Below, piece by piece: positions 14,416-19,011 of a DNA stretch of 64,000 bases. The position numbers were made by a program, and so were the translations under genes. The stretch spans positions 25,896 through 89,895 of the forward strand of contig JAQTQX010000019.1 of the NCBI GenBank assembly GCA_028712075.1, read 5' to 3'. The notes below the pieces were generated by a model. The model was given only the letters and a program-made list of their open reading frames with translations. It did not search any database and was not told where the DNA came from. This stretch comes from Desulfuromonadaceae bacterium. Its GTDB lineage: Bacteria > Desulfobacterota > Desulfuromonadia > Geobacterales > Pseudopelobacteraceae. Each line of letters opens with the position of its first letter. Position 1 is the stretch's first letter.

Positions 14416-15208
14416 CTCATATTGACTGAATAGTCATTTACACAGAATCGTTGACAAGTCCGATGATATCACTTTGACTTTTGCTTTTATGCCATGGATA
14501 ACCTGAATGAGTAAAGGCTGATCGTAATGCAACCGATCAGCCTTAAGTCCAAGTGAATGGATATCCTGTTTTGTCAGGATTATTGGGAAACGAAATAATG
14601 TTCCCCATTAGTAATAAACCAGTATGTGTTTGAAAAAGAACTATTTCGCTTACCTCATCTACTGCATGTACATCAGACAATCAGTCTAGCAAATGTGAAT
14701 CCGGGTGAGCCTGTAATGACAGGACTTAAGTGGAGGCATAACCCCCATGAATGAAACATATTCTATTGAGTTGTGAAATTACGATTCTTCCAAACCTCCT
14801 CTCGTCGAAGTGGCTTCCTTGTGAAATAACACTTAGCATAAAGCAGGCCAAATCGTACAAAAAACATAACCATTTGATATTGCGGATAAATAATATTGTC
14901 TAGGGCCATGTTTATATTGTGCTCAACGGCAGTTGCCGCGAATTAACGGCACGGCTGACTGGATATAGCGAAACCTCCGGAAATGTGCGGATACAGTCTG
15001 ATAAATTCTCCATCGTACCTGGCCTTGCAAACGGATCAGGTAATCCATTTCCGGTGATTGCGGCATCGGCAAGACAACCAACACCGATGCTCTATACCGG
15101 GCTTCCGATGCCGGCCCGTCCTGCCGATTTGGTATAAACAGCTTGACGCCTTCTCCACCCATCAATGGGTTGCTTACATCGGAGTTCAACCCGAATTCAA
15201 AATCGCGG

Positions 15209-16519
15209 TTACATCTTGTCACCTCGCAGATATTCTGCAAAAAGCTTTGTTGCACCACGTGAAGCACAGAAATCACCACACATGGTACAAGTATGTTCGT
15301 CTTCAGGTATACGGCTGGCTCGAATAGCCCTTGCATCATCCGGGAAGAGTGCCAAATCGAATTGTCGCTGCCAGTCCAAATCCCTTCTGGCTTTTGACAT
15401 TTCCTTGTCACGCTGACGGCTCCTTTCCGGATACTTGTTCATGTCACCGATGTAAGCTGCAATCTTTGCAGCTTTTACCCCCTGGCGAACATCATCCTCA
15501 TTGGGGAGGGCAAGGTGCTCTGCAGGAGTTATATAGCAGATGAGGTCGGCACCATGGCTCGATGATTGTGCTGCACCAATGGCGGCAGTGATATGGTCGA
15601 ATCCGGGAGCAACATCGGTGCAAATTGGACCAAGCATGTAATACGGTGCACCGCCACTCATTCGCTTCTGGAGCTGAATGTTTCCAGCTATTTCATCAAG
15701 TGGCACATGTCCGGGTCCCTCAACCAGCATCTGGCATCCCATGTCACGACCTATTTCCGCCAGTTCGCAATTGATGAGCAGCTCCTGGATTTGGGCACGG
15801 TCGGATGAATCGTGAATAGCCCCGGCTCGGAGTCCGTTGCCGAGAGATAATACGGTGTCGTATTTTTTCAGGATTCCAACTACTCGGTCGAACTGCTCAT
15901 ACAATGGGTTCTCACGGTTGTTGGCAAGCATCCAGGCTGCCATTGATACACCACCCTTGGATACCAGCCCACCGTAACGGTACCCCTGCTTGCGTAGCCG
16001 TTCGATGGTATAGAGATTGATGCCGCAGTGAACAGCCATGAAAGCCATGCCGTCGGCACACTGCTGCTCAATAAGGTCAAAGAGAAGTTCTTCATCAAGT
16101 TTGTTCGGGTCGCCATATTTGCGTGCAGCTTCACAGAACGCCTGATAAAGGGGGACATTACCAACCGGTAGTTCAACAGCAGCTATGACTTCACGCCTGA
16201 CCCGGTCCAAATCTCCACCGACTGAAAGCTCCATCAGTGTGTCAGCTCCTGACTCCTGTGCGGCAAGAGCTTTGCGTACCTCGGCTGTGTAGTCGATGAT
16301 GTCGCTGGATGTGCCGATGGAGGCATTCACCTTGGTACGCAGACCTTTGCCAATGCCGGCTATCCGTTCCGGTTTGCGATTGATATTCCAGGGTATGACA
16401 ATTTTTCCTCCGGCTACCATCTGGCGGATGTACTCTGCCGGCAGGTTTTCGTCAATTGCCACACGGCTCATCTGTTCGGTTATGGTTCCTTGTCGTGCTA
16501 CTTCAATCTGGGTTGGCAT
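15209..16519 (-). CDS. thiC: ThiC-family radical SAM enzyme; given the B12 riboswitch, probably 5-hydroxybenzimidazole synthase BzaF rather than HMP-P synthase
   Basis: ThiC-like sequence throughout, with the C-terminal CTMCGDFCA Fe-S motif. I place the start at ATG 16519, 6 nt after AAGGAG. The longer ORF in the track (to 16642) would cover the leader terminator and riboswitch. Confidence 0.85.
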   Translation of the reverse strand: MPTQIEVARQGTITEQMSRVAIDENLPAEYIRQMVAGGKIVIPWNINRKPERIAGIGKGLRTKVNASIGTSSDIIDYTAEVRKALAAQESGADTLMELSVGGDLDRVRREVIAAVELPVGNVPLYQAFCEAARKYGDPNKLDEELLFDLIEQQCADGMAFMAVHCGINLYTIERLRKQGYRYGGLVSKGGVSMAAWMLANNRENPLYEQFDRVVGILKKYDTVLSLGNGLRAGAIHDSSDRAQIQELLINCELAEIGRDMGCQMLVEGPGHVPLDEIAGNIQLQKRMSGGAPYYMLGPICTDVAPGFDHITAAIGAAQSSSHGADLICYITPAEHLALPNEDDVRQGVKAAKIAAYIGDMNKYPERSRQRDKEMSKARRDLDWQRQFDLALFPDDARAIRASRIPEDEHTCTMCGDFCASRGATKLFAEYLRGDKM

Positions 16520-16548
16520 TCGCATCTCCTTGGCTGGTATATGAGCGG

Positions 16549-16583
16549 AAAAACAAAAAACCCCTGTCGGGAATGGACAGGGG
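16549..16583 (-). terminator. Intrinsic terminator acting as the riboswitch expression platform
   Basis: On the minus strand it reads CCCCTGTCCATTCCCGACAGGGG followed by TTTTTTGTTT, about 30 nt upstream of the RBS. Confidence 0.75.
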
Positions 16584-16639
16584 CGCGAATGCCACGGAGA
16601 GGATAGCGGGCTTCGGCCCCTCTTTCCACGGAGGTTCCA

Positions 16640-16790
16640 CAAAGCATCGGGTTGGCAGGTTTCCTGGCTCCAGGGTCATTTTACTTGCCGCGCCTTCCCG
16701 GTACATACCAGTGGCATAATGCGGCTTTCATCGCCTGTTACAGTTGCGGGACAGCAAGGGATTTTCACCCTTTTCCCTATTATCCGTAGT
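16640..16790 (-). promoter_or_regulatory. Cobalamin (B12) riboswitch aptamer
   Basis: The minus strand reads AATAGGGAAAAGGGTGAAAATCCCTTGCTGTCCCGCAACTGTAA ... GCCACTGG ... GGGAAGGCG ... GAGCCAGGAAACCTGCC. These match the conserved cobalamin-riboswitch core and B12 box. No TPP-box (CTGAGA) is present. Confidence 0.8.
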
Positions 16791-16835
16791 CAAATTGACC
16801 ACGGCACCAATCCGGGGTTTATACAGTTGATAATT

Positions 16836-16863
16836 CATTATCAGTCTTGAGTGGCAAAGTCAA
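16836..16863 (-). promoter_or_regulatory. Candidate sigma-70 promoter for the riboswitch leader
   Basis: Minus strand TTGACT-N16-ATAATG, about 45 nt upstream of the aptamer. Confidence 0.35.
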
Positions 16864-16905
16864 TTGAGTTCAGAACGGGAGACCGGCGTCTCTGTAGTTA
16901 CTCAA

Positions 16906-17400
16906 TTACAGACGTTTACATACAAAGTTTGTTGTTTCTGGCACTCCAGCACTTGTGCATTTAATTGGCTGAAGAGTTTGAGGATTTGTAGGGTAATTAA
17001 TACGGCTATCAGATATGGCATCACCTGAACATGCAAGAGGAGCAGAATCCCCACTGCCAATTATATAATCCTCGTTATACGACAATGGAAATCCCATGAA
17101 TTGATCTTGATACTGGGTTGCACTATTACAAACAAAAACCGTGATAACTTCAGAACAAGTATTCAGATACCTGTAAAGTTCAAATGGTGAATAAGTTCTA
17201 TTTAATGGTTGAAGACATGCATTCATTCCGCTAGTAACATTACTTGCTAAGATGGTAGTTGTAGTGACGCTTGCGGTGGTTGTTGTAGTAGAAGTGCTGG
17301 TAGTTGTAGTGCTTGATGTTCCGCTGGAACTACCATTTGATCCACCTCTACCACAAGATGTAATGATACAAAGCGAAACTGCCAGAAGTAACTTGACCAT
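16906..17400 (-). CDS. lipoprotein with Ser/Thr-rich linker and Cys-containing C-terminal domain
   Basis: ATG 17400 gives MVKLLLAVSLCIITSCG, a lipobox. This is followed by the tract SSSGTSSTTTTSTSTTTTTASVTTTT. Confidence 0.6.
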   Translation of the reverse strand: MVKLLLAVSLCIITSCGRGGSNGSSSGTSSTTTTSTSTTTTTASVTTTTILASNVTSGMNACLQPLNRTYSPFELYRYLNTCSEVITVFVCNSATQYQDQFMGFPLSYNEDYIIGSGDSAPLACSGDAISDSRINYPTNPQTLQPIKCTSAGVPETTNFVCKRL

Positions 17401-17549
17401 AGTTTTCTCGTTCACCTGATCCCCCTTTTTTGAAACTACCCATAACAATATGTAGATAGAAAGTGTAAATAAAATCGACAAGTCCTAAAGTAAAGGGACG
17501 CTACTTGTTCGAGTAAGCGTCCCTAATGAGTTTGAGCTATGTATTGCGA

Positions 17550-18317
17550 TTATGCTTTTGTATTCTTCCTGCGCTTGCCGTACACGGCGAGTCCAGCCAT
17601 ACCGAGACCAAGGAGGGCTATTGTTCCTGGTTCGGGTACTGGCGTGTTGTCAGGAGTATCGTTCAGGGCAATTGAAGTCTCAATCATGAGATTAGATGCT
17701 GATGTGTGACGCTCCGCAAAGAAGAAGTCAAAGCCGTAGTTGTTACCGGCCGTGAGCCCAAGAGTATCAAGATTGACCGATGCAGATGCTGCAGGATGGA
17801 TACCACCAAGATCAACTACTAACTGTTTATTGATGAACACCCAAACATCATCATCACCAGTGAAATTAAACTTTTGTCCCGCCTGGTATGTGAAATCAGT
17901 ATGGAGTTCATACGTAAAATGATAGTTATGAATACCATAGTTTCCTAATAATTGATCATCTATCGGGAAAAAGCCATCGTTAGAGTAAGTATAAACACTC
18001 GGGCTTGTTTCATTCAGAGTAATTGTGTGGCTCTTTGATGCGTTTACCCCTGCCACATCATTAAACCACTGGTTAAACGTTGTAGCACTCTGGATGCTAT
18101 CATTTGAAGTACCGACAAAAACAGGTTTGCCATCTAATCCAAGTGTTGGGCTGACTATTCCAGTTACAACCCCATTAATAGCCGCTTCAAAATCAGGGTT
18201 TGTTAAGGGAGTGAAGTCCCTTATTGTTCCCGTGAGATTAATTGAGGTCGCTGCTGAAATAGACGCTGTTGTCAGTACGGCTACAAATGCTGTTACAAGG
18301 ATTGATTTAAGTTTCAT
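17550..18317 (-). CDS. fibro-slime (PA14-like) domain protein with PEP-CTERM sorting signal
   Basis: Signal peptide, then GTIRDF..NPDFE, FFPID, HFTYELHTDFTY..G..F.FTGDDDVWVFIN..LVVDLGGIH and FFFAERHTS.SN. The C-terminus is VPEPGTIALLGLGMAGLAVYGKRRKN. Confidence 0.8.
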   Translation of the reverse strand: MKLKSILVTAFVAVLTTASISAATSINLTGTIRDFTPLTNPDFEAAINGVVTGIVSPTLGLDGKPVFVGTSNDSIQSATTFNQWFNDVAGVNASKSHTITLNETSPSVYTYSNDGFFPIDDQLLGNYGIHNYHFTYELHTDFTYQAGQKFNFTGDDDVWVFINKQLVVDLGGIHPAASASVNLDTLGLTAGNNYGFDFFFAERHTSASNLMIETSIALNDTPDNTPVPEPGTIALLGLGMAGLAVYGKRRKNTKA

Positions 18318-18925: not shown

Positions 18926-19011
18926 TGGTAGCGGAGGCCGGACTCGAACCGGCATGAGGTTGCCCTCGGCAGATTTTGAGTCTGCTGTGTCTACCATTTC
19001 ACCACTCCGCC
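18926..19011 (-). tRNA. tRNA-Leu (anticodon CAA)
   Basis: The minus strand reads GGCGGAGTGGTGAAATGGTAGACACAGCAGACTCAAAATCTGCCGAGGGCAACCTCATGCCGGTTCGAGTCCGGCCTCCGCTACCA. It has a cloverleaf with a long variable arm, anticodon loop CTCAAAA and an encoded CCA. Confidence 0.9.

Follow-up and report, generated by a model that had tools for sequence, protein, structure and literature searches.

A cobalamin riboswitch directly precedes a probable BzaF-type member of the ThiC family in a solitary locus of a Desulfuromonadaceae genome

The DNA analysed here, referred to as the window, is a 64,000-nucleotide (nt) stretch of contig JAQTQX010000019.1 from a Desulfuromonadaceae bacterium (assembly GCA_028712075.1). 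On its minus strand, a cobalamin riboswitch (16637–16826) is followed by a gene (15209–16519) for a 436-residue radical S-adenosylmethionine (SAM) enzyme of the ThiC family. The two very probably form a single-gene transcription unit that encodes an orthologue of BzaF, the predicted 5-hydroxybenzimidazole synthase. A preliminary description of this DNA had suggested that the ThiC-family gene is likely to be bzaF, and the suggestion is now supported by the clade in which the protein falls, an asparagine at position 228, the split between the two ThiC-family paralogues of the genome, and the cobU-cobT-cobS context of the orthologues. In Geobacter-type anaerobes, 5-hydroxybenzimidazole is the lower-ligand base of the cobamide. 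In the literature, BzaF is described as the single ThiC paralogue that makes this base from 5-aminoimidazole ribotide (AIR) (Hazra 2015 and Mehta 2015, cited in PMC6461909, PMC7726332, PMC8123684 and PMC12661338), and the cobamide of G. sulfurreducens is [5-OHBza]Cba (PMC8123684). The window enzyme would likewise convert AIR to 5-hydroxybenzimidazole, and attachment of the base would then fall to CobT, CobS and CobU, whose genes lie in another part of the genome and follow a sister riboswitch.

The assignment of the leader is straightforward. A full-length match to the class I cobalamin riboswitch model of Rfam (RF00174, model positions 1–189) covers 16637–16826 on the minus strand; at 124.6 bits, where the gathering score is 31.5, it is far above chance (E=7.5e-31), and it is the sole riboswitch in an Rfam scan of the whole window. 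The aptamer core (GGGAA..GGTG, CCCGCAACTGTAA and GAGCCAGGA.ACCTGCC) aligns to the RF00174 consensus, and the B12 box GCCACTGG (16708–16715, minus strand), read from the sequence, aligns with the consensus GCCACUGg. When the region from 15100 to 17100 was read, every leader motif quoted in the preliminary description (GGGAAAAGGGTGAAAATCCCTTGCTGTCCCGCAACTGTAA, the B12 box, GGGAAGGCG and GAGCCAGGAAACCTGCC) was found on the minus strand. That description had also called the leader a cobalamin and not a thiamine pyrophosphate (TPP) riboswitch, and the covariance models agree: the TPP model (RF00059) has no match in 16400–17000 even at E≤10, a permissive scan that returned RF00174 together with three sub-threshold small RNA matches. 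The set of elements that it listed was exact; the upstream end that it gave, 16790, was too short, as the aptamer reaches 36 nt further, to 16826. Structurally, nothing distinguishes the window leader from RF00174 elements with a terminator platform, with which it shares the full consensus architecture, the B12 box and then an intrinsic terminator. Its natural ligand would be expected to be a 5-hydroxybenzimidazolyl cobamide rather than cobalamin itself. A promoter-like site, TTGCCA-16 nt-AATTAT (16830–16857, minus strand), ends 4 nt upstream of the aptamer; it is a consensus match only, with 9 of 12 positions matching, and shuffled sequence held more such sites than the region itself.

The expression platform resembles that of a transcriptional switch. 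An intrinsic terminator with a T-run had been reported just before the ribosome-binding site (RBS), and a terminator scan located it at 16550–16584 on the minus strand, where a 9-bp GC-rich stem encloses a 7-nt loop and is followed by a TTTTTTGTTT tail. The element reads GCCCCTGTCC-ATTCC-CGACAGGGGT, or GCCCCTGTCC-ATTCC-CGACAGGGG(T), plus the TTTTTTGTTT T-run. It lies 53 nt beyond the end of the aptamer and ahead of the RBS, and related leaders preserve the stem despite changes on one side or, in compensation, on both. The RBS itself, AAGGAG (16526–16531, minus strand; read from the sequence), lies 6 nt before the ATG at 16519 with which bzaF starts and is conserved in related leaders. An in-frame ATG at 16525 was rejected as the start codon; it abuts the RBS and is not conserved in relatives. 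Further upstream, the platform segment TGGAACCTCCGTGGAAAGAGGGGCCGAAGCC (16609–16639, minus strand) is near-invariant in a set of nine leaders, one of which is that of cobU in the same genome. When the nascent RNA was folded without the 3′ arm of the terminator, GAGGGGCC paired with GCGCCCCUG, which is the terminator 5′ arm; GAGGGGCC is a plausible candidate for the antiterminator. A terminator between aptamer and RBS is the classic design of a transcriptional OFF switch. We infer the same logic and the same ligand response for the window leader: binding of an adenosyl-cobamide to the aptamer would allow the GC-rich hairpin and T-run (16584–16550) to form, and transcription would stop before the RBS, giving feedback repression. 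Without ligand, GAGGGGCC would pair with the terminator 5′ arm and permit read-through into bzaF.

The short, 436-residue ThiC-type open reading frame (ORF) with the motif CTMCGDFCA was found, as described earlier, at 16519–15209. Its only Pfam match is to the ThiC radical SAM family (PF01964, 598.7 bits), its C-terminal part contains HTCTMCGDFCASRG, and the cluster cysteines are present as C411-X2-C414-X3-C418. Homologues were sought among 1.84 billion cluster representatives, and a tree of 60 rows was inferred with IQ-TREE (LG+C20, quick search) with SH-aLRT (Shimodaira–Hasegawa-like approximate likelihood ratio test) support. This tree of ThiC, BzaA, BzaB and BzaF proteins, a comparison proposed in the preliminary description, places the window protein in a BzaF clade with 99% support, outside the ThiC and the BzaA/BzaB clades. 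The same clade holds ten orthologues from related loci; P0116 from Desulfuromonas sp. TF, which carries the NCBI name '5-hydroxybenzimidazole synthase BzaF' and is 87% identical to the window protein; P0117, a JGI '5-hydroxybenzimidazole synthase'; and proteins of G. metallireducens and Geoalkalibacter. Sister to this clade, at 100%, is P0122 (65% identical), whose gene follows cobT, cobS and a TauE-family gene, and the next branch is P0123 (57% identical), from a 1.4-kb contig. The TPP-operon ThiC proteins of Geobacterales form a separate clade (100%), as do BzaA and BzaB together (98%) and the long-form ThiC proteins of the E. coli and plant type (590–635 residues). The BzaB reference is P0126. 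Its gene stands directly after P0272, another PF01964 gene and the presumed BzaA, and the pair lies behind a cobalamin riboswitch of 103.4 bits.

The active site offers a second way of telling the paralogues apart. A search of the PDB returned ThiC structures only and no BzaF, and the window protein was aligned with the PDB chains by HMMER. According to a published comparison, the position of D383 in Arabidopsis ThiC (AtThiC) is occupied by Asn in BzaF (PMC12661338). The same work equates E413 of Caulobacter ThiC (CcThiC) with AtThiC E422 (PMC12661338), and the two numberings are therefore offset by 9. In our alignment, window E267 (in VEGPGH) corresponds to CcThiC E413, and window N228 corresponds to CcThiC D374, and hence to AtThiC D383, the Asp of GDGLRPG. 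The surrounding motif is LGNGLRAG in 81/81 sequences of the BzaF clade and LGDGFRPG in 21/21 ThiC paralogues of the order. Asn is also found in P0122 (GNGIRAG) and P0123 (GNGMRAG); BzaA and BzaB (P0272 and P0126) keep Asp. In total, 22 positions separate the BzaF clade from ThiC, among them N67S, D97E, R188K, D228N and P232A. The catalytic cysteine is kept (C328, equivalent to CcThiC C474), as are C411, C414 and C418 of the cluster. LGNGLRAG versus LGDG[FL]RPG, taken together with the class of the riboswitch, provides a simple means of separating BzaF from ThiC in Geobacterales genomes. The cluster motif itself, C-X2-C-X3-C, occurs in both ThiC-family proteins of this genome (CTMCGDFC in the window protein and CTMCGEFC in its paralogue); it is one residue shorter than the C-X2-C-X4-C of long-form ThiC (CSMCGPKFC) and is not diagnostic of BzaF versus ThiC.

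The remainder of the assembly (53 contigs, 4.15 Mb, 99.8% completeness) contains a separate ThiC. Exactly two PF01964 genes are present genome-wide, on different contigs: the window gene and a paralogue on contig C42 (C42:6280-7566) that encodes 428 residues with 48% identity to the window protein. The paralogue starts 4 nt past the stop codon of a gene for a 497-residue ThiE/ThiD fusion, which passes both TIGR00693 and TIGR00097, and the fusion gene is in turn closely preceded by a TPP riboswitch of 63 bits (C42:4599-4724). Directly before the C42 thiC itself there is neither a TPP nor a cobalamin riboswitch; the TPP element is the one further upstream, before thiE/thiD. The search for a second thiC behind a TPP riboswitch, suggested in the preliminary description, thus ended in this thiE/thiD-thiC operon. 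That description would have been contradicted by a protein lying inside the ThiC clade and representing the only thiC of its genome; the window protein lies outside that clade, and the genome has a thiC of its own. A second TPP riboswitch (66.1 bits, C27:95146-95244, minus strand) is followed on the same strand by ORFs that, read from the sequence, are ThiG-like (258 residues) and ThiE-like. Both TPP riboswitches lie elsewhere, on C42 and C27, and the window gene stands outside the TPP-controlled thiamine set; the true thiC, in its TPP-riboswitch operon, would handle thiamine pyrimidine synthesis.

The genes for attaching the lower ligand are also found outside the window. The preliminary description had proposed looking for cobT elsewhere in the genome, and it was recovered on contig C51 (C51:161116-163850, minus strand), where another cobalamin riboswitch precedes cobU, cobT and cobS, with CobU, CobT and CobS all above their NCBIfam cut-offs and no cobC directly downstream of the three genes. 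CbiD (343 bits) and CobQ (536 bits) are present as well, which gives the organism the anaerobic corrin pathway. Neither BluB nor a BzaD/E-type protein (TIGR04385) reached its cut-off in the genome. Because bzaF and cobT are present and neither bluB nor bzaD/E was found, the cobamide predicted for this organism is [5-OHBza]Cba, of the Factor III type.

Orthologues were surveyed in 61 genomes of the same order. An orthologue of 85–92% identity is held by 51 of them, a second match of 46–50% is present in nearly all, and the distribution is strictly bimodal, with nothing in between. When 20 of the 46–50% paralogues were sampled with 3 kb of upstream sequence, 17 had a TPP riboswitch on the gene strand about 1.6 kb upstream, a distance equal to the length of thiE/thiD, and none had a cobalamin riboswitch within the same 3 kb. 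The surroundings of the orthologues were then classified in 80 named loci, from Geobacteraceae and Desulfuromonadales metagenome-assembled genomes and from Geomonas, Citrifermentans, Geomobilimonas and Pelotalea isolates, by nhmmer with the window aptamer and by tblastn with the genome's CobU, CobT and CobS. The order riboswitch, cobU, cobT, cobS and, further along, bzaF was seen in 34 loci, and the order riboswitch, cobU, cobT, bzaF (followed in some by cobS) in 18, so that 52 of the 80 have bzaF on the same strand within a cobU operon. Adjacent cob genes on a contig too short to reach a riboswitch account for a further 11, and 8 have too little upstream sequence to be classified. In the remaining 9, the riboswitch directly precedes bzaF at 107–335 nt, as it does in the window. 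By reading of the ORFs, L033 has cobU-cobT-bzaF-cobS-cobC, L022 has cobU-cobT-cobS-bzaF-cobC, and L014 and L084 have cobU-cobT-cobS-cobC-cbiA-bzaF-cbiM... The last of these is also the published layout of G. daltonii, cobU-cobT-cobS-cobC-cbiA-bzaF (Geob_0538-0543; PMC13119186), and the locus tags of G. sulfurreducens, GSU3005 for bzaF and GSU3010 for cobU (PMC7726332), fit it too. Because 52 of the 80 loci are cobU-cobT operons, bzaF orthologues are embedded among the genes of lower-ligand attachment. The solitary position of the window gene, described earlier as unusual, is indeed so: no cob or bza gene lies near it in the window, and the same arrangement occurs in 9 of the 72 informative related loci, about one in eight.

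The principal alternative is that the window gene encodes a second true ThiC, a hydroxymethylpyrimidine phosphate (HMP-P) synthase isozyme that came under repression by B12 by chance. The names and models in public databases speak for it. The window protein exceeds the cut-offs of the NCBIfam ThiC equivalogs, with 597.7 bits against 410 for NF009895 and 562.3 against 460 for TIGR00190, and most of its public homologues at 87–92% identity are named 'phosphomethylpyrimidine synthase ThiC', a few being named '5-hydroxybenzimidazole synthase (BzaF)'. However, the NCBIfam library has no model for BzaF or BzaA, and its ThiC models also pass a BzaB-type protein, P0126, which scores 733.2 bits on the BzaB model TIGR04386 and yet 596.9 on NF009895. 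NCBIfam was rejected as a discriminator between ThiC and BzaF for these reasons: it cannot separate ThiC from the B12 paralogues because the ThiC models accept the BzaB-positive protein as well. The earlier warning that automatic annotation as thiC would be misleading is thus borne out by the equivalog scores, by the lack of a BzaF model and by the names of the closest homologues. Given a separate ThiC in a TPP-regulated thiED-thiC operon, the position of the window protein outside the ThiC clade, the replacement of the conserved active-site Asp by Asn (PMC12661338) and the orthologues inside cobU-cobT-cobS operons, we regard a second ThiC as very improbable. Slimmer still is the chance that the protein is no stand-alone BzaF and acts, as a subunit of the BzaA or BzaB type, only with a partner paralogue. 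Its match to TIGR04386 is strong, but at 546 bits it fails the threshold of 700. The only other PF01964 gene of the genome is the ThiC of the thi operon; no tandem ThiC-family paralogue was found at this locus or at any of the 80 related ones; and the reference pair P0272 and P0126 falls in a different clade and keeps the Asp. Some points nevertheless weigh against the identification of the gene as bzaF and of its leader as an OFF switch, in addition to the ThiC equivalog scores. The product of the window enzyme, 5-hydroxybenzimidazole, is itself something that we infer. The connection to BzaF runs through an NCBI-named protein that is 87% identical, through synteny of published locus tags and through one published signature residue, in a tree that does not include the characterized GSU3005 or D. 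acetoxidans BzaF. Finally, the antiterminator is predicted from thermodynamics, and there is little independent covariation to back it.

A further alternative leaves the gene as bzaF and concerns its control. The segment directly 5′ of the terminator (16585–16593) is perfectly complementary, over 9 nt, to the start-codon region (16515–16523) on the minus strand. Pairing of GGCAUUCGC (16593–16585) with GCGAAUGCC (16523–16515) over the start codon could add a second layer of control, in which ligand-bound transcripts that escape termination would also be blocked in translation. The resulting 9-bp helix, which encloses the terminator, appears in both the minimum-free-energy and the centroid folds. 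Five related solitary leaders keep the whole helix, one of them with a G-U pair, and the leader of L013 retains 6 of the 9 pairs and shows a double change from C-G to A-T. However, the five intact leaders are so closely related that they amount to about one observation, and the 3′ arm spans the start codon and a Pro codon and would be constrained in any case. The helix was not recovered by RNAalifold, the more distant solitary leaders L040, L069, L073 and L082 have no in-register helix, and the fold reaches a z-score of only -1.6. On balance, such two-layer control seems unlikely, and the single-layer transcriptional switch in front of bzaF is the reading that we retain.

As a system, the window locus is already known from the BzaF of Geobacter and Desulfuromonas, and nothing in it alters the known pathway; it differs only in standing alone behind what looks like a copied leader. 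Like the BzaF (EC 4.1.99.23) of G. sulfurreducens (GSU3005) and of D. acetoxidans, the window protein is a single radical SAM protein of the ThiC family, about 436 residues long, from the same order. It shares with them control by a cobalamin riboswitch and the presence of cobT, and bluB and bzaD/E were not found in its genome. Whereas bzaF is distal in a riboswitch-cobU-cobT-cobS(-cobC-cbiA) operon in G. sulfurreducens, G. daltonii and most relatives (PMC7726332, PMC13119186), window bzaF is monocistronic and lies 0.1 kb behind its own leader. With ThiC (Caulobacter, 3EPM; Arabidopsis, 4S25) the protein shares the fold, the substrate AIR, the glutamate of EGPGH, the catalytic cysteine and the C-terminal three-cysteine motif. 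The ThiC proteins of its own order differ from it in being only 46–50% identical, in having Asp and not Asn at the position of AtThiC D383, and in lying in a thi operon under a TPP riboswitch. BzaA and BzaB of acetogens (Moorella and Eubacterium type) are likewise ThiC paralogues that serve the same lower-ligand step behind cobalamin riboswitches, but they are two tandem paralogues in a separate clade that keep the Asp, and the window protein fails the BzaB model. The practical value of the distinction lies in annotation: labelled thiC, the window gene would give the genome two 'ThiC' proteins and hide the predicted synthesis of a benzimidazolyl cobamide.

The leader also suggests how the solitary arrangement arose. 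An alignment with the leader of cobU on C51 extends without gaps over 228 columns at 85% identity; it starts in the P2 region and takes in the platform and the terminator. With the cobU leaders of the L033 and L022 types, identity is 84–88% over 223–255 columns. With the genome's four transporter riboswitches, only 32–113 core columns can be aligned. Because the 85% identity extends over 228 nt and includes the terminator, the window leader looks like a copy of a cobU-operon leader, and the C51 operon cobU-cobT-cobS corresponds to an L033-type operon minus bzaF. Most likely, bzaF left an operon of the cobU-cobT-bzaF-cobS type and took a copy of the leader along. Solitary loci share only about 1.4–1.6 kb of leader plus gene and differ in their flanks, except that in three pairs the common stretch is somewhat longer. 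By sequence, the leaders form at least two groups, and bzaF may have relocated once or several times. A bolder version, which we consider doubtful, is that riboswitch and bzaF form a relocatable unit of about 1.6 kb that left the cobUTS operon repeatedly with a copy of its leader, and that the start-codon helix may add a translational layer in this lineage. If it is true, lower-ligand synthesis gains a set-point of its own, apart from nucleotide-loop assembly. In itself, the duplicated leader would be a minor case of a gene leaving its operon together with a copied riboswitch. In the assembly of the isolate Pelotalea chapellei (L021; NZ_JAHDYS010000035.1, 1577 bp), the bzaF orthologue is alone on a contig whose end lies 144 nt before the start codon, a break of the kind that a duplicated riboswitch leader would be expected to cause.

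Six cobalamin riboswitches are present in the genome: those of the window and C51, and two tandem pairs on contig C6. The tandem pairs lie on the minus strand at C6:18677-19243 and C6:25756-26353, with 98.7 and 62.7 bits and with 93.2 and 60.5 bits, respectively. By reading of the ORFs, one C6 pair precedes a cbiMNQO-like cobalt transporter and the other precedes a TonB-dependent receptor and btuFCD-like genes.

The genes that surround the riboswitch–bzaF unit in the window are of other kinds. Upstream, on the same strand, lie genes for a 190-residue Ser/Thr-rich protein, a putative lipoprotein without a family match (16906–17481, minus strand), and a fibro-slime domain protein with a PEP-CTERM sorting signal (17550–18317, minus strand; TIGR02148, 136 bits), followed by a tRNA gene (18929–19011) and tgt. 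Downstream, a gene for a hybrid histidine kinase converges on bzaF, and the 0.8 kb between it and the bzaF stop codon (14416–15208) is gene-poor. This interval shows no remnants of cobS, cobC or cbiA by tblastn (best E=0.49) and no DNA similarity to the 80 related loci. Within the region downstream of bzaF, a 118-nt piece (about 15005–15122) matches a site on contig C29 with 78% identity, and a 50-nt piece matches one on contig C22 with 86% identity; these pieces may be small dispersed repeats.

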